A stretch of 64,000 nt of DNA from Bacteroidales bacterium (GCA_041686375.1 JAWLEB010000001.1:73997-137996); one strand, 5' to 3'. Shown: positions 4,453-61,462, numbered from the stretch's first letter. Numbers and translations are program-made. Notes: generated from the sequence alone by a model not told the origin.

Positions 4453-5637
4453 ATAATAAAGATCGTCATAAGGATACCTTTGCACATGTATCTTTTTGAC
4501 TTCTTTGTAGAGCAGTTCCCGTAGTTGTTCGATATTTGTCTTAGTTTTAGCAGATATAAAAAGGCTTTTTTTATTGGTTTTAGCAATCCAGCTCTTTTTC
4601 ATTTCATTATAAGATTGAAGCATCATGTCTGAATTATCTACTTCATGATCTTCGGGCTCCTCTGTTTTTACCTTGTCTATTTTATTAAAGATAACAAACA
4701 TTGGCGTTTTATCTGCCCTGATTTCATGTAATGTATTATTGACAATATTAATTTGTTCCTCGAAACTGGGGTGGCTGACATCTACAACATGCAGCAGAAT
4801 GTCTGCCTCTCTCACCTCGTCCAAGGTTGATTTAAAAGATTCTACCAGACTGTGGGGAAGTTTCCTTATGAAGCCTACCGTATCGGTAACTAAAAAAGGA
4901 AGGTTGCCAATAGCAATTTTTCTTACTGTCGTATCCAGTGTTGCAAAAAGCTTGTTTTCTTCAAATACAGAAGCTTTACTTAATAGATTCATCAATGTTG
5001 ATTTGCCTGCATTGGTATAACCAACCAGTGCAACCCTGACCAGTTTTCCCCTGTTTTTACGCTGGGTAGCTTTTTGCTTGTCAATTTTTGCCAATTGATT
5101 TTTTAACCGTGTTATCTTATCTCTGACGATACGTCGATCTGTTTCTATTTCCCTTTCACCTGGCCCTCTTGTTCCAATTCCACCCCTTTGCCTTTCAAGG
5201 TGTGTCCACATTCCTGTTAATCTGGGCAGAAGATATTCATATTGTGCAAGTTCAACCTGAGTCTTCGCATGGGCTGTTTTCGCCCTGCGTGCAAAAATAT
5301 CCAGAATGAGATTAGCCCTGTCCATAATTTTGCACTTGAGTATTTTTTCTACATTTCTTAATTGCGTTGGTGTTAGTTCTTCATCAAAAATAACCGTGTC
5401 AATTTTTTCCTGATCTATAAATTCTTTGATTTCCGAGAGCTTTCCTATGCCTATAAAAGTTTTGGGATTAGGTTTATTCAGTGCTTGAGTGAATTTTTTG
5501 ATAGGTGTGCCACCGGCTGTTTTGGTCAGAAAAGCCAATTCATTTAAATATTCGTTAACCTGCCAGTCATTCTGCTCACTCTTTTTTATCCCTACAAGCA
5601 CAACCCTTTCTACGCTTTGTTTTGTTTTTTCTAGCAT
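4450..5637 (-). CDS. hflX: GTPase HflX
   Basis: HflX N-domain signature GTRGPGEREIETDRR, G1 GYTNAGKST, G3 DTVGF, G4 NKID. Confidence 0.9.
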   Translation of the reverse strand: MLEKTKQSVERVVLVGIKKSEQNDWQVNEYLNELAFLTKTAGGTPIKKFTQALNKPNPKTFIGIGKLSEIKEFIDQEKIDTVIFDEELTPTQLRNVEKILKCKIMDRANLILDIFARRAKTAHAKTQVELAQYEYLLPRLTGMWTHLERQRGGIGTRGPGEREIETDRRIVRDKITRLKNQLAKIDKQKATQRKNRGKLVRVALVGYTNAGKSTLMNLLSKASVFEENKLFATLDTTVRKIAIGNLPFLVTDTVGFIRKLPHSLVESFKSTLDEVREADILLHVVDVSHPSFEEQINIVNNTLHEIRADKTPMFVIFNKIDKVKTEEPEDHEVDNSDMMLQSYNEMKKSWIAKTNKKSLFISAKTKTNIEQLRELLYKEVKKIHVQRYPYDDLYY

Positions 5638-5833
5638 ATATTTTTTATTTGTACAAATCTACATTTTTTTAAACAGAGAATAAACTCAGCTCCGCATTGG
5701 AACAAATACCTCTTCATCTTGCACCCTCAAAAAAACATTCAATTTCACATGCATTATTCTTAACTTATCAATATTTTCAAGATTGTATTCTTTCTTTTAT
5801 TATTTTTGAAGGAAAACTTAAAAATTTTATCCT

Positions 5834-7468
5834 ATGAAACAATTAAACTATTTATTCTTTTTTACAATGATTCTACTCATGTTGTTCCCAAATTTGGCGG
5901 AATCTTATACGGGGGAAATTGTTAAAAGGTTTAAAACAAAGGGAGAAATCCCTACAGGATTGACTTATGACGGAGAACATATTTGGATGGCCGACCGAAA
6001 AGACAAAATGTTATACGCGGTTAATCCGGAAAGTGGGGAGGTAACCGCTAAATTAGAGTCGCCTGCCTATTGGCCTATGGGATTGACCTGGGATGGTGAA
6101 TCTCTTTGGAATATCGATGTAAAAGGAGGTATACCATTGTATGAAAACTATAAAGGGGTGGTGTATCAAATTAATCCTGATGATGGAACGATAATGCACA
6201 GTGTTACCGTTCCTGCCAGCCAACCCCGTGGTCTCACCTGGGATGGAGAATATCTTTGGTGTGTTGATAATGACAATAACAAGGTAATTCAGTTTAATCC
6301 GGAAGACGGCACTACCATTAAATCATTTAAATCACCTGCGACCGACCCCAGAGGATTGACTTTTGATGGCAATTATTTATGGATTTCTGACAGAATGAGA
6401 GATGAAGTTTACATGGTTTCGCCTGAGGATGGTTCTGTTATTATAATTACAGAATCGCCCGGTGAGTTCACCCGTGGCTTGGCATTTTTTGATAATCATC
6501 TTTGGGCTGTTGATTCAGAGGAAGATATGCTGTTTCAATTGACCGTGAGAGACGGTGAAAAATATAGACGAAGTAACCCCCATAAGGGTAAAGTTACACA
6601 TAATCACCAGATTACAAATTTCGGACAAGGAAATATCAAAGAATCAGGAATTCATTTCGCTATTCCAACTGATCGCAATAACCAGGAACTTGATTCCAAA
6701 GTAACATATAGCGAAGATTATGATAAAGTTGTAACCGATGATTGGGGACAGGAAACTGCATTTTTTAAAGATGAAAATATTGAACCCGGCACTACTATTG
6801 ATTATGAGATGCAAGTAGAGTGTACTTTATATGATGTAAGATGGTTTATTTATCCCGATGAGGTGGGTAGTCTTGATGATGTGCCGGACGACATCAAAGA
6901 CAGATATCTTGCTAATAATGAGAAATATCAGTACGATCATCCGATTATACAGGATGCCCTGAAAAAAGCTATTGACGAAGATGAGACCAATCCTTACTGG
7001 ATGGCGCGGGATTTATTTAATTATCTGATTGATAATATGTATTATGAAATGGTTGGAGGCTGGAATACTGCACCAGCAGTTCTTGAGAGAGGAAACGGAT
7101 CGTGTTCTGAATATTCTTTTGCTTATATTTCAATGTGCCGTGCGATAGGAATCCCTGCTCGATATGTTGGTTCCCTTGTGATACGGGGAGATGATGCGAG
7201 CATGGATGATGTTTATCACAGGTGGGTAGAAATTTACTTGCCAAACTATGGATGGATACCAGTTGACCCAAGCGGAGGAGATAAAAAGTTACCCAGAGAT
7301 CAGGCGAATTACATAGGGCATCTGGGTAATCGCTTTTTGATAACAACGCAGAGCGGCGGCGGTTCTGAAACAATGGAGTGGACTTATAATTCCAATGACT
7401 ATTGGATTACTGAACCAAAGACTTATGTCGTTTCTGATCATTTTGCAGATTGGGAGCCGGTAGAATAA
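5834..7468 (+). CDS. Secreted beta-propeller-repeat / transglutaminase-like cysteine peptidase fusion protein
   Basis: A signal peptide is followed by five repeats of about 46 aa (GLTYDGEHIWMAD.., GLTWDGESLWNID.., GLTWDGEYLWCVD.., GLTFDGNYLWISD.., GLAFFDNHLWAVD..). The C-terminal transglutaminase core is GNGSCSEYSFAYISMCRAIGIPARYV ... HRWVEIYL ... GWIPVDPS (Cys-His-Asp). Confidence 0.75.
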   Translation: MKQLNYLFFFTMILLMLFPNLAESYTGEIVKRFKTKGEIPTGLTYDGEHIWMADRKDKMLYAVNPESGEVTAKLESPAYWPMGLTWDGESLWNIDVKGGIPLYENYKGVVYQINPDDGTIMHSVTVPASQPRGLTWDGEYLWCVDNDNNKVIQFNPEDGTTIKSFKSPATDPRGLTFDGNYLWISDRMRDEVYMVSPEDGSVIIITESPGEFTRGLAFFDNHLWAVDSEEDMLFQLTVRDGEKYRRSNPHKGKVTHNHQITNFGQGNIKESGIHFAIPTDRNNQELDSKVTYSEDYDKVVTDDWGQETAFFKDENIEPGTTIDYEMQVECTLYDVRWFIYPDEVGSLDDVPDDIKDRYLANNEKYQYDHPIIQDALKKAIDEDETNPYWMARDLFNYLIDNMYYEMVGGWNTAPAVLERGNGSCSEYSFAYISMCRAIGIPARYVGSLVIRGDDASMDDVYHRWVEIYLPNYGWIPVDPSGGDKKLPRDQANYIGHLGNRFLITTQSGGGSETMEWTYNSNDYWITEPKTYVVSDHFADWEPVE

Positions 7469-52194: not shown

Positions 52195-52527
52195 TCAAAT
52201 TAATTCTTTGCCGGGATCCCAGAAAATTCGCTCGTAATCAACAACTTTGTCGTCTTTGACCTCAATTCCTTCATTTTCCAGAAGCTGTTTCATAACATCC
52301 GGCCCCTGAAAGTGACTTTTCCCTGTAAGCATGCCTTTTTTGTTAACTACTCTGTGAGCGGGAATGAAATCTTCTTTGTCTTTTGAGCTGTTAAGCGCCC
52401 ATCCTACCATTCTTGCTGCTGCTGATGAGCCAAGAAACCTGGCAATGGCTCCGTAAGAGGTTACTCTTCCAGCAGGTATTTGCTTTGTTACACGATAAAC
52501 TTTTTCGAAGAATGTTTCATCATTCAT
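52195..52527 (-). CDS. Alkyltransferase-like (ATL) protein: MGMT DNA-binding domain lacking the acceptor cysteine
   Basis: VTSYGAIARFLGSSAAARMVGWAL and IPAHRVV in place of the MGMT PCHRVV motif. I prefer the ATG at 52527 (MNDETFFEKVY), 2 nt after the trmB stop. The longer track ORF overlaps trmB. Confidence 0.75.
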   Translation of the reverse strand: MNDETFFEKVYRVTKQIPAGRVTSYGAIARFLGSSAAARMVGWALNSSKDKEDFIPAHRVVNKKGMLTGKSHFQGPDVMKQLLENEGIEVKDDKVVDYERIFWDPGKELI

Positions 52528-53221
52528 TGTCAGGCTCTTTGAGTATTTTGTTTTTATCCAGATTAAAGGCCAGATATTTGATTGTCTTGTTTTGTTCAAT
52601 AAATTGTTCTTCGTAGAAGGTTTTGATCGTTCGCAACATTTGCAGACTTTCATCTTTTGTTCCATGGATATCTGTATGATCATGAATCAGGTTGAGATTA
52701 TTGAGTTTGATAATTTCACCTGTGTAATGATAGAGGTCGTAGTTATCTGTTTTTAGGTGAATTATACCTTTATCCTTTACGAATTGTTGATATCTTGATA
52801 GAAACATTTTGGACATAAGCCTTTTTCTGGCTTTTTTGGGTTGTGGATCAGGGAAAGTAATCCATATTTCGTCTATTTCGTCTTCCTCAAAGAACGAAGT
52901 TATGAAATCTATTCTAGTTCTTAGAAAAAGTGCATTTTGAAGGTTGTCTTCCAGCGCTTTTTTCGCTCCTCTCCACATCCTGGCTCCTTTAATATCTATT
53001 CCTATAAAATTATAAGAAGGAAAATTTTTAGACATATTAACGGTATATTCTCCTTTCCCGCACCCTAGCTCCAGAATAACCGGATTGTTATTTCTGAAGA
53101 CATCTTCTCTCCATCGTCCTTTTAATTTGTAATCTGTTTGAAATACTTCGTGAAATTTTGGTTCTAAAACGTTTGGAAACGTTTTCATTTCTTCAAAACG
53201 TTCTAATTTTCTTTTTGTCAC
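52520..53221 (-). CDS. trmB: tRNA (guanine46-N7)-methyltransferase
   Basis: SAM motif ILELGCGKGEY and FPDPQPKK. The GTG start overlaps the gldH stop (GTGA). Confidence 0.9.
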   Translation of the reverse strand: MTKRKLERFEEMKTFPNVLEPKFHEVFQTDYKLKGRWREDVFRNNNPVILELGCGKGEYTVNMSKNFPSYNFIGIDIKGARMWRGAKKALEDNLQNALFLRTRIDFITSFFEEDEIDEIWITFPDPQPKKARKRLMSKMFLSRYQQFVKDKGIIHLKTDNYDLYHYTGEIIKLNNLNLIHDHTDIHGTKDESLQMLRTIKTFYEEQFIEQNKTIKYLAFNLDKNKILKEPDNE

Positions 53222-53706
53222 TGTTCAGAGATTTTTGCTTTTTCGATTTGAATGCCAAAATCAGTAACATGTTTAAGCGGATTTGCACGCATTCCCTGCT
53301 GTATGTCAATTGTGTAAGTTCCGCTTTTTGGGAAACGCACATACTCTTTATATGGAACGGATACCTCAAATACATCTCCCCAACCTTTTCCGTACCATTG
53401 TCCTTTATCATTCGCCAGCATTAATTCCAGCGTATCTTTAACTGTAAATCCTTCAGGGGATGTGGTTTCAACAAACAAGTATAAGTTTTGGTACTGGTAT
53501 TCAGAAGTGTGGCGAACATAGAAAAAGACATGATGTGCGTTTATGGTATCTTCTATGTTGAAACGGTAGCTAAGAACGTTGGAAGTATCCCACTTAGCAT
53601 TTTTTAGATCAGTGCTTTCATTATAAATACGGTCTGGGTTGCAGCTATAAACAATAAGAAGTGTCGCCAATACTGTTATAGTTGTGCTAATTTTTTTTCT
53701 TTCCAT
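53218..53706 (-). CDS. gldH: Gliding motility lipoprotein GldH
   Basis: The start is taken at MERKKIST (53706). Lipobox VYSC. The CNPDRIYNES..W.....F...NLYLFVETTSPEG..VKDTLEL.LA...G...G pattern matches the GldH family. The position after holB-PSP1 is typical. Confidence 0.75.
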   Translation of the reverse strand: MERKKISTTITVLATLLIVYSCNPDRIYNESTDLKNAKWDTSNVLSYRFNIEDTINAHHVFFYVRHTSEYQYQNLYLFVETTSPEGFTVKDTLELMLANDKGQWYGKGWGDVFEVSVPYKEYVRFPKSGTYTIDIQQGMRANPLKHVTDFGIQIEKAKISEQ

Positions 53707-54844
53707 TCGATTTTCTTTTTTTTCTTGTTGATTTCCGCTTTTTCTTATTCCTAGCCTTTTTATCAAAGCGATCCAGACTTTCTTGCCCTACATTATTTTC
53801 AAAATCGATGGAATCATTCATTAAACTTTCAGTGTCTATTAATGCATCTGGCTTATTTCCTCCCTGATTGATTGAGATGATTTGTTTCACTCTTTCGACT
53901 GACACCGGAATTAAACTTTCTGAGGAATCAGTACTGAATGAATACCAAAGTGTCTTTTTGAAAATATCTGTTTTTTGATGATAAGCCGTTCCTTGTTTCG
54001 TTTCCAGAAGAATCTCTGTATCCGGGAAATTCTTCTTGGCATCAATATAACAATCTAGTTCATAATTCAGGCAGCATTTTAGTTTGCCACACTGGCCTGC
54101 AAGCTTTTGAGGATTAAGTGATAGTTCCTGATGTCTGGCTGAATTTGTTGTAACAGAAACAAAATCTGTTAACCATGAGGAACAACATAACTCCCTGCCA
54201 CATGATCCAATCCCGCCAATTCTCCCTGATTCCTGCCGGGTTCCTATCTGGCGCATTTCTATACGGATTTTAAACTCTTCTGCCAGAATTTTTATAAGCT
54301 CTCTGAAATCAACACGTTCTTCTGCAATGTAATAAAAGATGGCTTTTGTCTTATCTCCCTGGTATTCAACATCTCCAATCTTCATCTCAAGGTTTAAATC
54401 TCTTGCTATTTTCCGTGCTTTTATCATTGTTTTATGTTCCAGGGATACAGCTTCGCGCCATTTCTCAATGTCTGTTTCTTTGGCTTTGCGATAGATATTT
54501 TTAAACTCAGTCTCTTCTGGTGAGGTATCGAGTTTTTTCAGTTTTCTCAGCACTAACTCTCCGGTTAGGGATACGATTCCAATGTCGTGCCCTGGAGATG
54601 CTTCTACTGCCACTATATCTCCTTCTCTCAGTCTTAGTTGATTAATGTTATGAAAAATTTCTTTCCGGGTATTTTTAAAGTGTACTTCAACCAAATCGGT
54701 TGATCCGCTATACGAAGGGATATCCTTCAGCCAGTTGATATTATTCAGTTTTGTGTAATGCTCTGGCTTACAAAAGCTACATGGCCAATTTTGTTCCTGT
54801 TGCTTTGTCTTATCTATATATTGATTATTGTTTGTATTGTCCAT
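53687..54844 (-). CDS. PSP1 domain protein (RicT/YaaT-like)
   Basis: PSP1 C-terminal core with Cys cluster GSCGRELCCSSWL...CGKLKCCLNYE and a Lys-rich tail. Confidence 0.85.
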   Translation of the reverse strand: MDNTNNNQYIDKTKQQEQNWPCSFCKPEHYTKLNNINWLKDIPSYSGSTDLVEVHFKNTRKEIFHNINQLRLREGDIVAVEASPGHDIGIVSLTGELVLRKLKKLDTSPEETEFKNIYRKAKETDIEKWREAVSLEHKTMIKARKIARDLNLEMKIGDVEYQGDKTKAIFYYIAEERVDFRELIKILAEEFKIRIEMRQIGTRQESGRIGGIGSCGRELCCSSWLTDFVSVTTNSARHQELSLNPQKLAGQCGKLKCCLNYELDCYIDAKKNFPDTEILLETKQGTAYHQKTDIFKKTLWYSFSTDSSESLIPVSVERVKQIISINQGGNKPDALIDTESLMNDSIDFENNVGQESLDRFDKKARNKKKRKSTRKKRKSNGKKKN

Positions 54845-54924: not shown

Positions 54925-56049
54925 TTATAGTCTTAACAATTTCATCAGTTTAATGGAGAGATCGAGAAAAAGGGTTTTATTATGCGCATTCATTTGAATA
55001 TCACGTGATGCATTATTAATCTCAGTGAAAATTTTATGAGCATTGTTATTGTTAATAAACTGAGAAAATTTTATGGAGAAATCTTTTTCTTCCTGGGTAA
55101 GATATGTTATTTTTTCCATTTCCAAATTAAGCATAAAATTTTCTCTTACCATTCTTGCCGCATATTGAAGGAATATTTTTTGTCTTTCTCTTCCAAGTGA
55201 TGACATTTCATCTACCCAGTTCAGGATGTCGGTTACCTTTTTGGCATAGCTTAGACGCATTAATTCAACAAAACGTTTGAAATTGTTTTGTTCTTCCTCT
55301 CCGGTACGAAAATAGTGTAGCGCATCCAGGTAGCTCCCGTTCGCCAGGTGCACAATCTCTTGTGCCTTTTTTACTTCCAGCCCCATATGGTCTGTTAATG
55401 CATTAAACATACTTTGATCATCAATGCCGGGCACTTTAATATTTTGGGTTCTTGAAAGTATTGTTGGAAGCAGAAGGTCGGAGTTTTCAGAGACCAGAAA
55501 AAACAATGTGTTTGGTGGTGGTTCTTCAATGATTTTAAGCAGCTTATTTGCTGCACTGGTATGCATTCTTTCCGGAAGCCATATTATCATCGTTTTATAG
55601 GGAGACTCATAACTTTTATAATTTAACTTTTTTATGATGTTGTGGCTTTCATTTGCCGGAATAATTCCCTGTTTGTTTTCCAGTTCCAACTTGTGGTACC
55701 AGTGGTTTGGGCTAAGGTATGGGTTTTCGAGTATGGTGTTTCTCCATAATTCTGCGTAATTGTCACTGGTTTCAGGATTGGTCTGTGATGCCTTTTTTAC
55801 GGGATAGACAAAATGTAAGTCAGGGTGTACAAGCCTCCGATATTTTTTACAAGAATTACATATACCACATGAATCATTTTCCTGTCTGTTTTCACAATTA
55901 ATATACTGAGCATAAGCAATTGCAAGGGCTAATTTGCCTGTTCCCTGAGGACCCAGGAAAATTTGGGTGTGGCTTATTCTCTCATCTTTAACTGTTTTTA
56001 TCAGTTGTTGCTTTATTTTGTACTGTCCAATAATTTCTTTGAATTGCAT
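54925..56049 (-). CDS. holB: DNA polymerase III subunit delta'
   Basis: AAA+ N-domain GPQGTGKLALA, zinc module CGICNSCKK, and SRTQ sensor. Confidence 0.85.
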   Translation of the reverse strand: MQFKEIIGQYKIKQQLIKTVKDERISHTQIFLGPQGTGKLALAIAYAQYINCENRQENDSCGICNSCKKYRRLVHPDLHFVYPVKKASQTNPETSDNYAELWRNTILENPYLSPNHWYHKLELENKQGIIPANESHNIIKKLNYKSYESPYKTMIIWLPERMHTSAANKLLKIIEEPPPNTLFFLVSENSDLLLPTILSRTQNIKVPGIDDQSMFNALTDHMGLEVKKAQEIVHLANGSYLDALHYFRTGEEEQNNFKRFVELMRLSYAKKVTDILNWVDEMSSLGRERQKIFLQYAARMVRENFMLNLEMEKITYLTQEEKDFSIKFSQFINNNNAHKIFTEINNASRDIQMNAHNKTLFLDLSIKLMKLLRL

Positions 56050-56164: not shown

Positions 56165-58549
56165 ATGTATTCAATAGACAATTATAACTTTAAAGGTAAG
56201 AAAGTTTTAATGAGAGTGGATTTCAACGTTCCCCTCGATAAAAATCAAAAGATAACCGATGATACCAGGATAGTGACAGCTTTGCCCTCTATCCAGAAAG
56301 TTTTAAGCGAGAAAGCAGCACTAATTTTGCTTACACATCTGGGTAGACCTAAAGGCAAGTATGATGAAAAATTATCGGTAAAGCATATTGTTCCCTATCT
56401 TTCAAATATATTGGAACGTGAGGTTCAATTTGTCGATGGGTGCATAGGCGATAAAGTTAAAAAGAAAGTAAGTGAATTAAAGCCCGGCGAAGTTTTGATA
56501 TTAGAAAACTTGCGATTTCATCCGGAGGAAAAGAGGGGCGGTAGTGAATTTGCCCGGCAACTTGCTGAGTTAGGGGATGTATATATTAATGATGCATTTG
56601 GAACAGCCCATAGGGCTCATGCTTCTACTTATACGGTGGCTAAATATTTTTCCAAAGATAAGATGTTGGGTTATTTGGTAGAAAGTGAAATTAAGAATAT
56701 GGACAGGGTGCTGAATGAGCCAGAACATCCATTTACAGCAATTATAGGAGGGTCAAAGATTTCTACTAAAATACACATTATAAAAGCCTTAATTGAAAAA
56801 GTTGATAATTTAATAATTGCTGGAGGTATTGCTTATACATTTAGTAAGGCTACCGGCGGCAAAATTGGGAATTCCATTGTTGAGAATAATTATTTAGATG
56901 TGGCGCTTGAGATAATAGAAAAGGCAAATAAATTTAAAGTGAATCTTTATTTACCGACCGACTGTATTATTGCGGATGAATTTAAGAATGATGCTAATAT
57001 TAAACATACTGAAATAGACAGCATCCCTGACAACTGGATTGGAATGGATATTGGAATTAAATCTGCCAACCAGTTTGCAAATGTTATTGAAAATTCAAAA
57101 AAGATACTTTGGAATGGTCCCATAGGAGTTTTTGAGATGTCTAATTTTTCTATGGGGACCTTAAAAATTGCTATGGCAGTGGCTTCAGCAACAGACCGTG
57201 GTGCTTTTTCTGTGTTAGGAGGTGGAGATAGTATTTCTGCTGTTAATAAATATGGACTATCAAACCGTATTAGTTTCGTTTCAACGGCTGGAGGCGCTTT
57301 ACTGGAATATCTGGAGGGAAAAGAATTACCTAGTTTACGGGCAATTCGTGAACAACTGACGATTGATAATTATGATTTTAATGGGAAAAGAGTTTTAATG
57401 CGAGTTGATTTTAATGTCCCTATGGATGAAAATTATAATGTTTTGGACAACACCCGTATCATAACTGCTTTGCCAACTGTGCGGAAGATTCTAACAGATG
57501 GTGGTTCTATAATATTTTTGACTCACCTTGGGCGGCCGGTTGGCGAATATGATGAGCGTTTATCTCTCAAACATATCGTGCCTTATCTTTCCCGTATTCT
57601 GGATAAAGAAATAAAATTTGTTGATAACTGTCTGGGGCGCAGAGCTAAATTAGCTGCAGAAAACTTACAACCGGGAGAGATTCTGTTATTAGAAAATCTG
57701 AGATTTCATAAAGAAGAATTTGAAGGAGACGAACAATTTGCCAAAGAACTCGCTGAATTAGGCGATGTTTATATTAATAATTCTTTTGGTACAGCCCACA
57801 GGGCTCATGCTTCCACTTATACAATTGCCAAATTTTTCCCTGACAATAGAATGTTAGGATATTTGGTTGAAAATGAAATAAACAATATCAATAGAGTTCT
57901 GAAAAGGCCTAAAAGACCATTTACTGCTATTTTAGGAGGATCTCAGGTCTCTACCAAGATACATATCATTCTTTCATTGTTACAAAAAGTTGATAACCTG
58001 ATTATTGCCGGGGGTATTGCTTATACTTTTGTCAAAGCCATGGGTGGAGATGTCGGCGATTCATTAGTGGAGGAGGATTATCTTGATGTTGCTAAAGATA
58101 TCTTGGATAAAGCAGAAGAATTAGATGTAAGTTTATTATTGCCAATCGATTGTGTTATCGCCGACGATTTCAATAATAATGCTAATATAAAGCATAGTGA
58201 TATTAACAAAATAGAAAAGGGCTGGAGAGGGATGGATATTGGTATTAAATCTGCCAACAAATTTGCAGAAGTAATAGAAAGTTCATCTTCCCTGCTCTGG
58301 AATGGGCCAATTGGTGTTTTCGAGATGTCGAATTTTTCCAGTGGTACACTTCGCATAGCTTTGGCTGTTACCCGTGCTACTGATAAAGGTGCATTTTCTT
58401 TAATCAGTGGAGGTGACTCTATTGCAGCATTGAATAAATATAATCTGGCTCATAAAGTAAGCTATGTGTCTACAGCAGGTGGTGCTCTGCTGGAATTTAT
58501 TGAAGGGAAGCAATTACCTTCCCTGAAGGCTATTGAGGAAAATATTTAA
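56165..58549 (+). CDS. pgk: Tandem-fused phosphoglycerate kinase (PGK-PGK didomain, 794 aa)
   Basis: Two full PGK units with a period of about 396 aa and no gaps. Each carries RVDFNVP, HLGRP, ENLRF, GTAHRAHAS, GGS(K/Q).STKI, WNGPIGVFE, (G/S)GGDS, STAGGALLE. The junction ..LRAIREQ|LTIDNYDFNGKRVLMRVDFNVP lies near nt 57353-57358 with no stop. Confidence 0.9.
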   Translation: MYSIDNYNFKGKKVLMRVDFNVPLDKNQKITDDTRIVTALPSIQKVLSEKAALILLTHLGRPKGKYDEKLSVKHIVPYLSNILEREVQFVDGCIGDKVKKKVSELKPGEVLILENLRFHPEEKRGGSEFARQLAELGDVYINDAFGTAHRAHASTYTVAKYFSKDKMLGYLVESEIKNMDRVLNEPEHPFTAIIGGSKISTKIHIIKALIEKVDNLIIAGGIAYTFSKATGGKIGNSIVENNYLDVALEIIEKANKFKVNLYLPTDCIIADEFKNDANIKHTEIDSIPDNWIGMDIGIKSANQFANVIENSKKILWNGPIGVFEMSNFSMGTLKIAMAVASATDRGAFSVLGGGDSISAVNKYGLSNRISFVSTAGGALLEYLEGKELPSLRAIREQLTIDNYDFNGKRVLMRVDFNVPMDENYNVLDNTRIITALPTVRKILTDGGSIIFLTHLGRPVGEYDERLSLKHIVPYLSRILDKEIKFVDNCLGRRAKLAAENLQPGEILLLENLRFHKEEFEGDEQFAKELAELGDVYINNSFGTAHRAHASTYTIAKFFPDNRMLGYLVENEINNINRVLKRPKRPFTAILGGSQVSTKIHIILSLLQKVDNLIIAGGIAYTFVKAMGGDVGDSLVEEDYLDVAKDILDKAEELDVSLLLPIDCVIADDFNNNANIKHSDINKIEKGWRGMDIGIKSANKFAEVIESSSSLLWNGPIGVFEMSNFSSGTLRIALAVTRATDKGAFSLISGGDSIAALNKYNLAHKVSYVSTAGGALLEFIEGKQLPSLKAIEENI

Positions 58550-58775
58550 TTTTAGTTTATAATTTTAATGATTTATTTAACCCGAATTATTCAAAAATTT
58601 AAGTTCACCTAAGTCGGCATCACCTTTGCTTTGTCAATATTGCGGAGTAAGGGTTTAATCTGCATTTAATCCAAATATTTTATAAATATGAATTATGTTA
58701 GGTATTAATCAAATGAACAATTCATCGGAATATAAACTATTATATAGTAAGATGTAGAATAAAAAAGTTAAAGCC

Positions 58776-60065
58776 ATGATAGAAAAATACAATTTACCCT
58801 TGATACAAAATGCCGATCTGGATGGAAAGGTCGTTTTGGTAAGAGTTGACCACAATGTTGTAAAAAAAGGAGAAATCCATGACCCTTATCGTATTGACGC
58901 TACAATTGGAACACTATATCATATCAATGCAAAAGGAGGAAAAATTATTTTGATGACTCATGTGGGTCGTCCCAGAGATAAGAAAACGGGAAAGATAGAA
59001 ATTAGTGATGATTTATCAGTTCAACCCATTGTGGATTATTTGCAGAATAAACTTCATATATCTCTTAAAGTTCCGGAGTTTCAGCAACACGGGGATAAAG
59101 GCTATCTGGGAATTGAAACTTCCGTCAACCATTTAATACGTGAATTACGTGAAGGTAAGATTGATGGTATTTATTTGCCTAATACTCGTTGGTTTTATGG
59201 TGAAGAAGCAGGAGGGGAAGAAGCCGATAGGTTTGCTCATCAATTGGCCGGTCTGGCAGATATTTTTGTTAATGATGCTTTTGGTTCATGGCAACCACAT
59301 GCTTCCACTGTTGAAGTGAATAAATACCTTCCTTCTTATGCAGGTTTTTTGATGCAAAGTGAAATAGAAAACCTGGAGCGAATTTACAATCCAAGGAAAC
59401 CATTTGTTGCTGTAGTAGCAGGGGCAAAATTTGATACCAAGGCGGAACCCTTGTATGCTCTACTGGAGAAGGTAGATTATCTTATTTTAGGAGGCGTTAT
59501 ATACAACGCTTATCTTGCGGCTAAATATGGTTTTGAAATTAATGGAATCACGGAGGAAGACCGTAAGCTGGCAAAAGAATTTATAGATTATGCAGAAAAG
59601 TATCAAAATAAAGTAGTGGAACTTCCTTATATTATTGAGTCTGATACACTTGAGGGCAGGATTGAAGGGAAATACAGAGAACACTATATTCATGATTTAA
59701 AATTCGGTACCAAACTGAATTATGTTTTGGATGTGTCACACAAATCCTTTGAAGAGGAAAGGGTACAGGAAGTATTTCATAATGCACAGACTATATTTGT
59801 AAATGCTGTCATGGGTTTCACTCCATATTTTAATGAAGGAACCATAGCTCTTGACCAGCTTATTGATGAAAATGTTGATGCTGTGAAGTTATATGGTGGA
59901 GGAGATACAATGCAAGAATTGAAACGCCTGTTGCCTGGCTTGTATATTGTTGCACTGGATCATCCAAAATATTATATTTTCACCGGCGGAGGAGCCGTTT
60001 TGAAGGCTATACAAGAAGGAACAACACTTGGGCTTGAACCTGTCAAAGCCCTTAAAAATTCGTGA
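58776..60065 (+). CDS. Divergent phosphoglycerate-kinase-family protein (429 aa)
   Basis: The PGK scaffold is recognisable but altered: RVDHNVV, HVGRP, NTRW, NDAFGSWQPHAS, AGAKFDTK, GGGDT, FTGGGAVL. There is extra sequence between the HVGRP and NTRW motifs. Confidence 0.7.
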   Translation: MIEKYNLPLIQNADLDGKVVLVRVDHNVVKKGEIHDPYRIDATIGTLYHINAKGGKIILMTHVGRPRDKKTGKIEISDDLSVQPIVDYLQNKLHISLKVPEFQQHGDKGYLGIETSVNHLIRELREGKIDGIYLPNTRWFYGEEAGGEEADRFAHQLAGLADIFVNDAFGSWQPHASTVEVNKYLPSYAGFLMQSEIENLERIYNPRKPFVAVVAGAKFDTKAEPLYALLEKVDYLILGGVIYNAYLAAKYGFEINGITEEDRKLAKEFIDYAEKYQNKVVELPYIIESDTLEGRIEGKYREHYIHDLKFGTKLNYVLDVSHKSFEEERVQEVFHNAQTIFVNAVMGFTPYFNEGTIALDQLIDENVDAVKLYGGGDTMQELKRLLPGLYIVALDHPKYYIFTGGGAVLKAIQEGTTLGLEPVKALKNS

Positions 60066-60227
60066 TTTAGTTCATCGCAATAGAAATTTTGTTTTATTTT
60101 TGCTACAATCACCAGCGCTTTTTTCATTGGTTACAGGAAAAAATGACATTATAATGCTGGTGGTCATTATGGCAAAATTTGCGTTACAGCTTTTACAGCA
60201 AGATAGTTAATTTGGCTAAAAATTATT

Positions 60228-60854
60228 ATGAAAGGATTTGTAGTTTACGATATTCGGGGAATATTCAATTCGGATTTTGATAAAAATGATGTTTATAAAT
60301 TCGGATGTTTTATACCAGAGCTTTCAGATGCGGATAAAGTTTTGGTGGGAATAGATGTACGTGAAGGCCGGGATGAAATTTTTGACTACTTGCTTAAGGG
60401 ATTAACTGACAGAGGAGTTGATGTGTACGAGGTAGGGCTCGCCATTACCCTAATGGTATATTATCTTGTTGGGAAATATTCGTTTAAGCTTTCTGTACAA
60501 ATTACTGCTTCGCACAACCCAAAGGAGTATAATGGTTTCAAAGTATCCGGAGAAGAAGTTTTACAGGATATTCGTTGCTCAAAATCTGTCCAGGAGTATT
60601 TAGAAAAATTTGATGCTCGGGTTCATACCTGGAGGGTTGGAATAGCATTTGCATCGTCACGGCTGAAAGGGATTGACGAGCCTTATGGTGGAGACCTTGC
60701 AGGTCATTATTCCTTTAAAGATTTTTATTATTCTGATTCGGGTATTATGGCTGTCTTGATAGTTTTGGGCATAACAGCACAATTCAAAGAGCAGGAGAAG
60801 TCCATTTCTGATGTTATGGATGAAATTAAAAATTTGATAGTACCCTATCACTGA
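60228..60854 (+). pseudogene. Phosphomannomutase/phosphoglucomutase-family remnant (domain I plus fragment of domain III; intact 208-aa ORF)
   Basis: Domain I has YDIRG and phosphoserine motif ITASHNPKEYNGFKV. The sequence then jumps directly to GGDLAGHYSF...DSGIMAVL (domain III sugar loop). No DGDGDR-type metal loop and no domain IV are present. The stop overlaps the rnhB ATG (TGATG). Confidence 0.55.
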
Positions 60855-61462
60855 TGGCCTTGAAACAATATTATAACAAGGGAGTAGTTGAGGCTGGCTG
60901 TGATGAGGCTGGCAGAGGATGTCTTGCAGGTCCGGTTTTCGCCGCTGCCGTGATCTTTCCAAAAGATTATGATAACCAGGATGTAAATGATTCAAAAAAG
61001 CTTAAGGCAGGTAAACGTGACCAATTATGTAAACAAATAGAAGAAGACGCTTTAACTTATGCTGTATCAAGGGTGGATGCGGAAGAAATTGACGAGCTAA
61101 ACATTTTTAGAGCCTCAATAGTAGCTATGCACAGGGCTATAGCTAAATTATCCATTGACCCTGATCATTTACTTATTGATGGCAAATATTTTTATAGCTA
61201 CAAATCTTTCTCCCATACGTGTGTAATCAAAGGCGATTCCAAATTTCTATCTATTGCCGCTGCTTCTATACTTGCTAAAACTTACAGGGATGCGTTTATG
61301 ATCAAATTGCATGAGGATTATCCTGAATATCAATGGCATAGCAACAAAGGATATCCAACAAGACACCACAGAGAGGCGATAAAAATCCATGGCATTACTC
61401 CATATCACCGGAACAGCTTCCGGCTATTACCAGAAGCTTATCAGGTGAAACTGGATATTTGA
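60854..61462 (+). CDS. rnhB: Ribonuclease HII
   Basis: GCDEAGRGCLAGPV and DSKKL. 202 aa. Confidence 0.9.
   Translation: MALKQYYNKGVVEAGCDEAGRGCLAGPVFAAAVIFPKDYDNQDVNDSKKLKAGKRDQLCKQIEEDALTYAVSRVDAEEIDELNIFRASIVAMHRAIAKLSIDPDHLLIDGKYFYSYKSFSHTCVIKGDSKFLSIAAASILAKTYRDAFMIKLHEDYPEYQWHSNKGYPTRHHREAIKIHGITPYHRNSFRLLPEAYQVKLDI

Follow-up and report, generated by a model that had tools for sequence, protein, structure and literature searches.

A fused double phosphoglycerate kinase and a separate PGK-like family adjoin at one locus of an uncultured Bacteroidales lineage

Phosphoglycerate kinase (PGK), usually a monomer, ranks among the best-studied and most highly conserved enzymes. In the 64,000-nt stretch of a Bacteroidales bacterium genome that was analyzed here (GCA_041686375.1, JAWLEB010000001.1:73997-137996; referred to as the window), three PGK modules and a shortened phosphomannomutase/phosphoglucomutase (PMM) gene lie between holB and rnhB. 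This locus raises the question of whether it is a specialized phospho-acid/phospho-sugar module, a decaying one, or simple gene-family expansion, all of which the original prediction, made from the sequence alone, had allowed for. The three plus-strand open reading frames (ORFs) that it described between holB and rnhB lie exactly where it had placed them. According to our analysis, the locus is, with a probability of roughly 0.6, a lineage-specific, stable arrangement of three PGK-fold modules and one recently dead gene. Two of the modules are fused in a single protein (the didomain PGK), and the third, which we call PGKL, represents a distinct family.

The 794-aa ORF of the didomain PGK contains two full-length stretches matching PF00162 (total E value, 5e-297), with unit 1 covering model positions 1 to 379 of 379. 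Its halves comprise 397 aa each and are 66% identical over 395 residues without a single gap, in line with the proposal that one ORF contains two complete PGK units. The junction is seamless and has no linker (AIREQ/LTIDNY): the C terminus of unit 1 is complete, and at the start of unit 2 the initiator Met and the following residue are swapped for one residue. An identical 794-aa ORF is present in an independent read-level assembly (Logan SRR31818009). Furthermore, at least 120 distinct clusters (90% identity) of didomain proteins of approximately 794 aa were found in metagenomes; the names on these clusters are "phosphoglycerate kinase" and, in one case, hypothetical protein of Marinilabiliales bacterium. 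An assembly artifact as the source of the fusion was therefore ruled out, both by the Logan ORF and by about 120 related 794-aa proteins, with more than 100 independent contigs having an ORF of this length.

Among the best 80 loci of a scan of 185,579 species-representative genomes (the scope of all genome scans reported here), the fusion was detected in approximately 11 genomes, all of them Bacteroidales/Bacteroidota metagenome-assembled genomes (MAGs). The next-best matches were single-copy pgk genes with 50 to 60% identity. An exhaustive search of 1.84 billion cluster representatives revealed only two full-length PGK-PGK representatives, P0121 and P0124. Larger multi-PGK proteins with two to four PGK-like stretches were molluscan: Aplysia (1918 aa; P0126), Bulinus (1031 and 1755 aa; P0128 and P0274), and Physella (958 aa; P0205).

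In a neighbor-joining tree, all Bacteroidales halves formed one clade nested among single-copy Bacteroidota PGKs. The N-halves and the C-halves each formed orthologous groups across genomes, and this orthology was kept at 55 to 91% identity. The nesting and the orthology of the halves indicate a single duplication-fusion, which was followed by divergence without homogenization. In a related MAG (L046), PSP1 and holB are followed by a single pgk, which is presumably the ancestral state, and holB also adjoins the didomain PGKs of L082 to L091. Judged by its sequence relationships, the didomain PGK is the vertically inherited housekeeping pgk, which underwent a single duplication and fusion within a Bacteroidales lineage. 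P0124, in contrast, is an independent PGK-PGK fusion of 797 aa. Its halves are sisters in the tree and are 72% identical to each other and about 41% identical to the window units. Since P0124 is independent of the Bacteroidales fusion, the architecture arose at least twice. The P0124 gene is the one just upstream of tpi (L166, 8001-11174; ENA ERZ21831019 ctg33840l), and its surroundings contain no PGK-like gene; the position next to tpi supports an ordinary glycolytic role of double PGKs.

In some public annotations, didomain PGKs seem to be called incompletely. At L084 (3480-5867; NCBI MEOE01000023.1), NCBI calls only a 384-aa PGK (4713-5867) inside the ORF, while the full 795-aa ORF is called by ENA and JGI at L083 and L085, the DNA of which is identical to that of L084. 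The P0121 cluster also contains 400-aa NCBI entries.

The residues of both units were assigned using the numbering of human PGK1 mapped onto the alignment, in which the motifs are unambiguous. The residues binding 1,3-bisphosphoglycerate (BPG) are Asp23, Asn25, Arg38, His62, Arg65, Arg122, and Arg170; Arg38, Lys219, Asn336, and Glu343 are essential for domain closure, and Gly371 lies on the ADP signaling path (PMC3900376). The catalytic Lys is Lys215, according to Flachner et al. 2005 as cited there. All seven ligands of 3-phosphoglycerate (3PG) and 1,3-BPG are present in both units. Unit 1 also has the Lys215 equivalent (Lys198, codon 56756-56758), Lys219, Asn336, Glu343, and the GGGD374 loop. 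In unit 2, Lys215 is replaced by Gln594 (CAG, 57944-57946; one base from AAG) and Gly371 by Ser748 (58406-58408), giving an SGGD loop, and the other closure and nucleotide residues are kept. Among 118 didomain proteins, K215Q was found only in the window protein and its seven closest relatives (at least 82% identity; the set spans 82 to 91%). Six of these eight proteins also carry G371S, and the other didomain proteins keep the mapped catalytic and binding residues in both units.

When the window was compared to the closest genome (L086), dN was 0.059 for unit 1, 0.060 for unit 2, and 0.041 for PGKL. Since synonymous sites were saturated in this comparison (pS of about 0.7), Tajima relative-rate tests were used in place of dN/dS. 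They showed no acceleration of unit 2 or PGKL and no rate asymmetry. Within the window subclade, conservation of unit 2 was 83.1%, compared to 86.6% for unit 1. These substitution measures point to strong purifying selection on each of the three PGK modules. The predicted partial degeneration of the didomain protein is therefore limited to K215Q and G371S in unit 2, both units being otherwise intact and under purifying selection. We infer that unit 2 is a catalytically impaired yet functionally retained module. On the deepest didomain branch (L092, 7001-8194, and P0121), it is the N-unit that deviates at otherwise invariant sites (N336D, F291K/N, A171N, and G312A), suggesting that asymmetric specialization of the units occurred more than once, independently.

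The third module, PGKL, matches PF00162 at model positions 1 to 377 of 379 (E value, 2e-81) and is 32% identical to unit 1 and about 30% identical to unit 2 (tblastn). Genome searches with PGKL revealed a tight clade with 55 to 92% identity, followed by a drop to about 33% for ordinary PGKs of many phyla. The hosts of the clade are Bacteroidales, Cloacimonadota, Spirochaetes, Nitrospirae, and Desulfobacteraceae MAGs. In the protein database, more than 120 PGKL clusters with at least 75% identity were found, and all named ones are labeled "phosphoglycerate kinase". A long stem separates the PGKL clade from the canonical PGKs in the tree. Its deep diversity lies in Cloacimonadota, Nitrospirae, and Desulfobacteraceae; in its shallow crown, sequences from Bacteroidales, Desulfobacterales, and Spirochaetes are intermixed with one Cloacimonadota copy. 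This cross-phylum crown indicates horizontal spread. Thus, the strong divergence that had been predicted for this PGK paralog was confirmed, but the protein is not a local duplicate: on phylogenetic grounds, PGKL is an old separate clade and a xenolog rather than a recent copy of pgk. For the third module, simple gene-family expansion is contradicted by the old separate clade, the long stem, and the horizontal spread across phyla.

The altered substrate-site motif reported for this module was also found. PGKL has FGS-WQPHAS in place of the canonical FGTAHRAHAS, with His169 replaced by Trp172 and Arg170 by Gln173 (59289-59294). Both replacements are invariant in the clade, except for one divergent member with Gly. 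They are part of a fixed signature that also includes VDHNVV, LPNTRW, LGGVIYNAY (Gly238Val), VNAVMGF--TP (Pro338Val), and three insertions. The insertion beside Arg65 contains a conserved, nearly invariant Lys (about residue 70 in window numbering). The ribose-binding loop (335-351; VNAVMGF--TP, approximately 59799-59825) has lost two residues in PGKL, and position 343 is not acidic. In the literature, Arg170 is described as a ligand of BPG that also takes part in a salt bridge of the closed form, and Glu343 as a ligand of the ribose hydroxyls that closure requires; by alignment, we equated Glu343 with Asp323 of Bacillus stearothermophilus PGK. PGKL keeps the other six of the seven BPG/3PG ligands (Asp23, Asn25, Arg38, His62, Arg65, and Arg122) as well as Lys215 (Lys218 in PGKL), Lys219, Asn336, and GGGD374.

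The AlphaFold2 (AF2) model of PGKL is confident (predicted local distance difference test [pLDDT], 90.2; predicted template modeling score [pTM], 0.86). Foldseek retrieved PGK structures only (TM score, 0.75 to 0.86; 24 to 31% identity), and no solved structure closer than this identity range was found in the structure searches. NCBIfam matches agreed with the Pfam assignments of the didomain PGK, PGKL, and the PMM relic, but no NCBIfam equivalog covering PGKL was found. Across the deepest didomain divergence, PGKL is better conserved than the housekeeping units (72% versus 54 to 66% identity). Its residues suggest an active-looking kinase that has changed mainly in the nucleotide and closure apparatus and has lost one phosphate ligand. 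Most likely, PGKL has remained a kinase of 3PG/1,3-BPG and differs in nucleotide use or in regulation.

PGKL was found at most 4 kb from the didomain PGK in all 16 didomain loci with enough sequence. It is located directly downstream on the same strand in 12 loci (L001/L086, L087-L091, L093, L002, L010, L015, L019/L089, and L082), with spacers ranging from about 20 nt (L093 and L002) to about 250 nt. The flanking holB/PSP1 and PMM genes are absent from L002, L093, and L167, and since the pair is kept there, it persists through rearrangements. A full-length PMM/PGM gene (445 to 446 aa; best NCBIfam match, NF007088) follows PGKL in most didomain loci. Hence, the suggested synteny check gave a positive result: PGKL homologs accompany didomain PGKs in every didomain-bearing genome examined, and in most of them a full-length PMM follows. 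In Bacteroidetes bacterium GWF2_33_16 (L083, 6256-7905; also L084 and L085), an inserted gene encodes a secreted Endonuclease_1/Por_Secre_tail protein. The features of the window locus are summarized in Table 1.

Table 1. Features between and including holB and rnhB in the window
Feature	Coordinates	Strand	Basis
holB (DNA polymerase III delta prime), divergent from the didomain PGK	54925..56049	-	Profile match
Didomain PGK, 794 aa	56165..58549	+	Two full-length PF00162 matches
PGK unit 1; all substrate-binding and catalytic residues intact	56165..57355	+	Residue maps
PGK unit 2; Lys215 -> Gln594, Gly371 -> Ser748, rest intact and conserved	57356..58549	+	Residue maps
226-nt spacer, didomain PGK to PGKL gene	58550..58775	+	Terminator, folding, and Rfam scans negative
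PGK-like protein PGKL, 429 aa; distinct conserved PGK-superfamily clade	58776..60065	+	PF00162, 2e-81
162-nt spacer, PGKL gene to PMM relic; one TAnnTTTG match at 60095-60102	60066..60227	+	
Phosphomannomutase/phosphoglucomutase relic, 208 aa; domains I and III only	60228..60854	+	Pfam, ortholog alignment
rnhB (RNase HII); ATG shares one base with the relic TGA	60854..61462	+	

Profile and tblastn searches of the 64-kb window revealed no gap, tpi, further PGK, or further PMM, and so the original prediction was right that no glycolytic partner is visible here. Upstream of holB, a GldH-like ORF (53218-53766, minus strand) and a PSP1 ORF (53687-54844, minus strand) overlap by 80 nt as listed, which is probably an artifact of start-codon choice in the mechanical ORF list. 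An MGMT-like PF01035 gene is located at 52195-52683 (minus strand); in the Bacteroidales block, this family lies four genes upstream of the didomain PGK.

Outside the Bacteroidales lineage, PGKL usually stands alone in unrelated contexts. Examples of sequences with PGKL but no didomain PGK are OY781965.2 (Bacteroidales) and CP070789.1 (Desulfobacterales). When PGKL neighborhoods were compared across about 30 loci, no recurring partner outside Bacteroidales was found, and a conserved PGKL operon was therefore rejected. Tandem unfused PGKL pairs are present in Cloacimonadota MAGs (L004, 484-3099, and L006, 2119-4736; 74% and 61% identical to the window copy, respectively). In a Nitrospirae MAG, a phosphofructokinase gene (L012, 11370-12584; PF00365, 4e-59) lies directly downstream of PGKL and is the sole glycolytic neighbor found outside Bacteroidales. 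At four Cloacimonadota loci, an MGMT-like DNA_binding_1 gene (PF01035) is directly downstream of PGKL (L004, 3355-3663; L006, 4797-5150; L014, 11244-11546; L016, 6600-6908). The MGMT-like and PMM-family neighbors in other phyla were rejected as PGKL partners, being different subfamilies or looking coincidental.

The PMM gene of the window was correctly described as internally deleted, with a stop codon overlapping the rnhB start. PF00162 matched all PGK modules, and in the 208-aa relic Pfam detected PGM_PMM domains I and III only. Intact orthologs have 445 to 446 aa and four domains (PF02878, PF02879, PF02880, and PF00408). Two in-frame deletions separate the relic from them: the first removed about 157 aa with the whole of domain II and the DGDxDR metal loop (DGDGDR or DGDADR in the orthologs L001, L082, and L083; junction at approximately 60552-60557), and the second about 81 aa of domain IV, among them the RPSNTEP phosphate loop (junction at approximately 60831-60836). 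The catalytic phosphoserine loop TASHNP is kept (residues 93-98; Ser codon 60510-60512), and the alignment to intact orthologs revealed substitutions at otherwise invariant residues. Lacking the metal loop and the phosphate loop and substituted at invariant sites, the relic can no longer work as a mutase.

In the intact L001 gene, each deleted segment is bounded by short direct repeats, GGRGAAAARGT (encoding GEKVL) and ATAAAAAATTA, which is the signature of slipped-strand deletion. Furthermore, Tajima tests detected 24 to 28 window-specific versus 7 to 9 L086-specific substitutions in the relic (chi-square, 6.8 to 12.6), while five control genes were symmetric. This acceleration indicates relaxed constraint. 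The PMM gene of the closest genome (92% PGKL identity) is intact, and thus the decay is recent and specific to the lineage of the window. The idea of a decaying module is accordingly true of the PMM gene in this genome only and not of the three PGK modules, which are under strong purifying selection. The relic TGA overlaps the rnhB ATG by one base (TGATG; CACTGATGG), and the intact L001 counterpart has TAATG. The reading frame kept through two deletions may reflect translational coupling to rnhB.

The spacers had been described as free of strong terminator hairpins, and our scans and folding agreed with this. No terminator-like site was found in the 226-nt or the 162-nt spacer; sigma-70 and terminator scans of the locus performed no better than shuffles and gave nothing in the spacers. 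The Bacteroidetes -7 motif TAnnTTTG was not enriched in the window (97 found versus 89 expected). Folding of the spacers revealed no unusually stable structure (z = -1.3 and -0.9), and an Rfam scan gave a chance snoRNA match only and no family in either spacer. A riboswitch or structured leader was rejected on the basis of the Rfam scan and the folding. In L087, L088, and L089, a conserved block (TTTCGTTTGAAAATGA..AACATCTTTTGTAATTT; alignment A5, columns 200-245) lies about 30 to 60 nt upstream of the PGKL start. This promoter-like block resembles the Bacteroidetes -33/-7 promoter, and it is degraded in the window (58720-58760). Given the block in three relatives, cotranscription of the didomain PGK and PGKL genes is possible but not required.

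How unusual the modules are becomes clear from a comparison to known systems. Each of them spans the whole Pfam model of the canonical monomeric PGK (EC 2.7.2.3, PF00162; B. stearothermophilus 1PHP and human PGK1), and units 1 and 2 are 45 to 47% identical to Firmicutes PGKs and have the canonical motifs. However, canonical PGKs are single units of about 390 to 420 aa, whereas the window protein has two units in one 794-aa chain, with unit 2 lacking Lys215, and PGKL differs by the loss of Arg170 and Glu343, three insertions, and a remodeled nucleotide pocket. In terms of sequence, units 1 and 2 are members of the PGK family (unit 2 minus one catalytic residue), and PGKL belongs to the PGK superfamily or fold, deviating from the family at two residue-level points. 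The best NCBIfam match of the didomain PGK is NF010569, the fusion of PGK and triosephosphate isomerase (TIM) of Thermotoga maritima and T. neapolitana (fus), in which a bacterial PGK is likewise joined to a second unit of the size of a glycolytic enzyme. The match is limited to the PGK part (positions 5-393 of 645), and a PF00121 match is absent: the partner in the window protein is a second PGK, not TIM.

PGK-TIM fusions, PAS-PGK, PGK-like proteins with cyclic nucleotide monophosphate (cNMP) domains, dead kinetoplastid PGK-like ORFs, and tandem PGK arrays have been described (PMC7729029). The kinetoplastid arrays (PGKA/B/C, PAS-PGK, flagellar PGKL, and dead PGK-like ORFs) also contain several PGK-family modules at one locus, some of them with substitutions of essential residues and presumed noncatalytic roles (PMC7729029). 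They are eukaryotic, however, and consist of separate genes or of fusions to PAS, cNMP, or transmembrane domains, while the window modules are bacterial, two of them form a single chain, the losses in unit 2 concern only one residue class, and the bacterial PGKL keeps the catalytic residues. The guanine-nucleotide-selective PGK of Entamoeba histolytica (EC 2.7.2.10), an anaerobe with pyrophosphate-linked glycolysis (PMC7729029), is a precedent for a switch of nucleotide preference in the PGK fold through changes in the nucleotide pocket and may be a model for PGKL, although the PGKL changes (Glu343 loss, G238V, and P338V) are more drastic. With the alpha-D-phosphohexomutases (PF02878-PF02880 and PF00408; NF007088), the relic shares domain I with the TASHNP serine loop and domain III, but not domain II and most of domain IV. 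Literature searches, which also covered Cloacimonadota PGK, found no description of a bacterial PGK-PGK fusion or of this divergent bacterial family, a 2020 PGK review being the only relevant item.

The preferred reading, a stable arrangement of three PGK-fold modules with one recently dead gene, builds on the architecture, phylogeny, residue states, synteny, selection, and deletions observed; the enzymatic consequences and the coupling argument we infer. A housekeeping pgk, normally a single gene beside holB in Bacteroidota, was tandemly duplicated once in the ancestor of an uncultured, Marinilabiliales-like Bacteroidales lineage, and the two copies fused seamlessly to a 794-aa double PGK. 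In most members, this covalent double PGK would run the ordinary reaction (1,3-BPG + ADP <-> 3PG + ATP). In the window subclade, unit 1 probably carries catalysis, and unit 2 may have become a weakly active or noncatalytic substrate-binding, structural, or regulatory module. PGKL, from a clade distributed by horizontal transfer between groups of anaerobes (Bacteroidales, Desulfobacterales, Spirochaetes, Cloacimonadota, and Nitrospirae), would be a second, specialized PGK isozyme, most likely for 3PG/1,3-BPG, with a different nucleotide preference or closure or regulatory behavior. The PMM gene, intact in relatives, was inactivated here by two slipped-strand deletions between short direct repeats, and its remnant plausibly stays in frame since ribosomes translating it would be handed on to the overlapping start of rnhB.

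Several observations weigh against this reading. AF2 models both units of the didomain protein confidently (pLDDT, 88), but the pTM is 0.55, and therefore no confident or fixed packing between the units is predicted. The consequences of K215Q and G371S are extrapolated from human PGK, and Gln could retain some activity. The loss of Arg170 in PGKL could equally be compatible with a different acid substrate, and since no conserved partner gene was found in the PGKL neighborhoods outside Bacteroidales, the substrate cannot be inferred from context. The linkage of didomain PGK and PGKL, stemming from one ancestral event, is phylogenetically a single observation. Moreover, the endonuclease gene sits between the two genes in L083 to L085, and in L167 PGKL is on the strand opposite to the didomain PGK, with two genes between them; because of this insertion, the opposite strands, and the promoter-like block in three relatives, the pair is at most a candidate operon. 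Finally, two in-frame deletions would occur by chance in about 1 of 9 cases.

Among the alternatives, a bolder version combines three proposals: that PGKL is an uncharacterized anaerobe enzyme family of other specificity (GDP/GTP, another phosphoryl donor, or another acyl-phosphate/acid pair), that the double PGK of the window subclade is an enzyme/pseudoenzyme pair with a noncatalytic substrate-binding or regulatory unit 2, and that both proteins form a specialized control point of lower glycolysis/gluconeogenesis. We regard this combination as tentative and rather unlikely.

Also unlikely, in our view, is a neofunctionalized PGKL that acts on another carboxylic acid or with a non-nucleotide phosphoryl donor in its own pathway, forming in Bacteroidales a phospho-acid/phospho-sugar module with the didomain PGK and PMM. 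The invariant loss of the 3-phosphate ligand Arg170 with Trp at 169, the conserved, Lys-rich insertion beside Arg65, the nucleotide pocket remodeled without Glu343, the conservation exceeding that of housekeeping PGK (72% versus 54 to 66%; dN of 0.041 versus 0.06), the missing equivalog, and the fact that PGKL stays linked to the didomain PGK and mostly also to PMM would all fit this idea. Yet only one of the seven BPG/3PG ligands is lost from PGKL, its phosphotransfer residues are complete, and its thematic neighbors are only ordinary glycolytic or sugar-phosphate enzymes (PGK, phosphofructokinase, and PMM). The dedicated module suggested by the original prediction is not supported either: PGKL has no recurring partner and occurs alone outside the Bacteroidales lineage, and it is intact in L002, L093, and L167, where PMM is missing, and in the window, where PMM is dead.

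Plain redundancy or dosage, with three interchangeable PGKs serving a high glycolytic or gluconeogenic flux and a functionally meaningless fusion and signature, seems less probable still. Every module is annotated as phosphoglycerate kinase in all sources, most didomain proteins keep all catalytic residues in both units, and the independent double PGK P0124 lies in a normal pgk-tpi context. However, neither a fusion conserved throughout the lineage with N/C orthology at 55 to 91% identity nor a PGKL signature of more than 20 residues fixed across five phyla is expected of redundant copies; moreover, unit 2 lost its catalytic Lys without becoming a pseudogene, and PGKL is a xenolog, not a duplicate. 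The last explanation, that unit 2 and PGKL are on their way to pseudogenes like the adjoining dead PMM, to which K215Q and G371S might point, or that the fusion is an assembly or annotation artifact, as the 384-aa NCBI call inside a 795-aa ORF of one relative might suggest, is already contradicted by the long intact ORFs with low dN and, unlike PMM, no rate acceleration of unit 2 or PGKL, by K215Q being common to 8 distinct proteins with 82 to 91% identity, and by the identical ORF in an independent assembly and the more than 100 contigs with a 794-aa ORF.

In summary, the locus is more structured than gene-family expansion, yet it is an unusual variant of a familiar enzyme and not a new type of system. 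Natural PGK-PGK fusions exist; they have at least two independent origins and have been kept throughout a whole bacterial lineage, and their genes can be under-called, one NCBI record giving half of the ORF. The PMM relic represents ordinary gene decay and is of interest only as a clear case of slippage deletions that preserved the frame upstream of a putatively coupled gene. Judging from sequence, the most interesting elements are the conserved, putatively misannotated PGK-like family and the apparent trend toward enzyme and pseudoenzyme in the fused PGK. In the window subclade, the second PGK unit is turning into a probable pseudoenzyme, making the didomain PGK a compact natural experiment in duplication, fusion, and catalytic loss in a hinge-bending enzyme. 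To our knowledge, the nucleotide pocket has been described as conserved in all PGKs studied. PGKL is a large, very conserved, horizontally mobile family of anaerobes that is labeled by default as phosphoglycerate kinase despite two lost key residues. If its activity indeed differs, metabolic reconstructions of Bacteroidales, Cloacimonadota, Desulfobacterales, and others would be misannotated at the PGK step.

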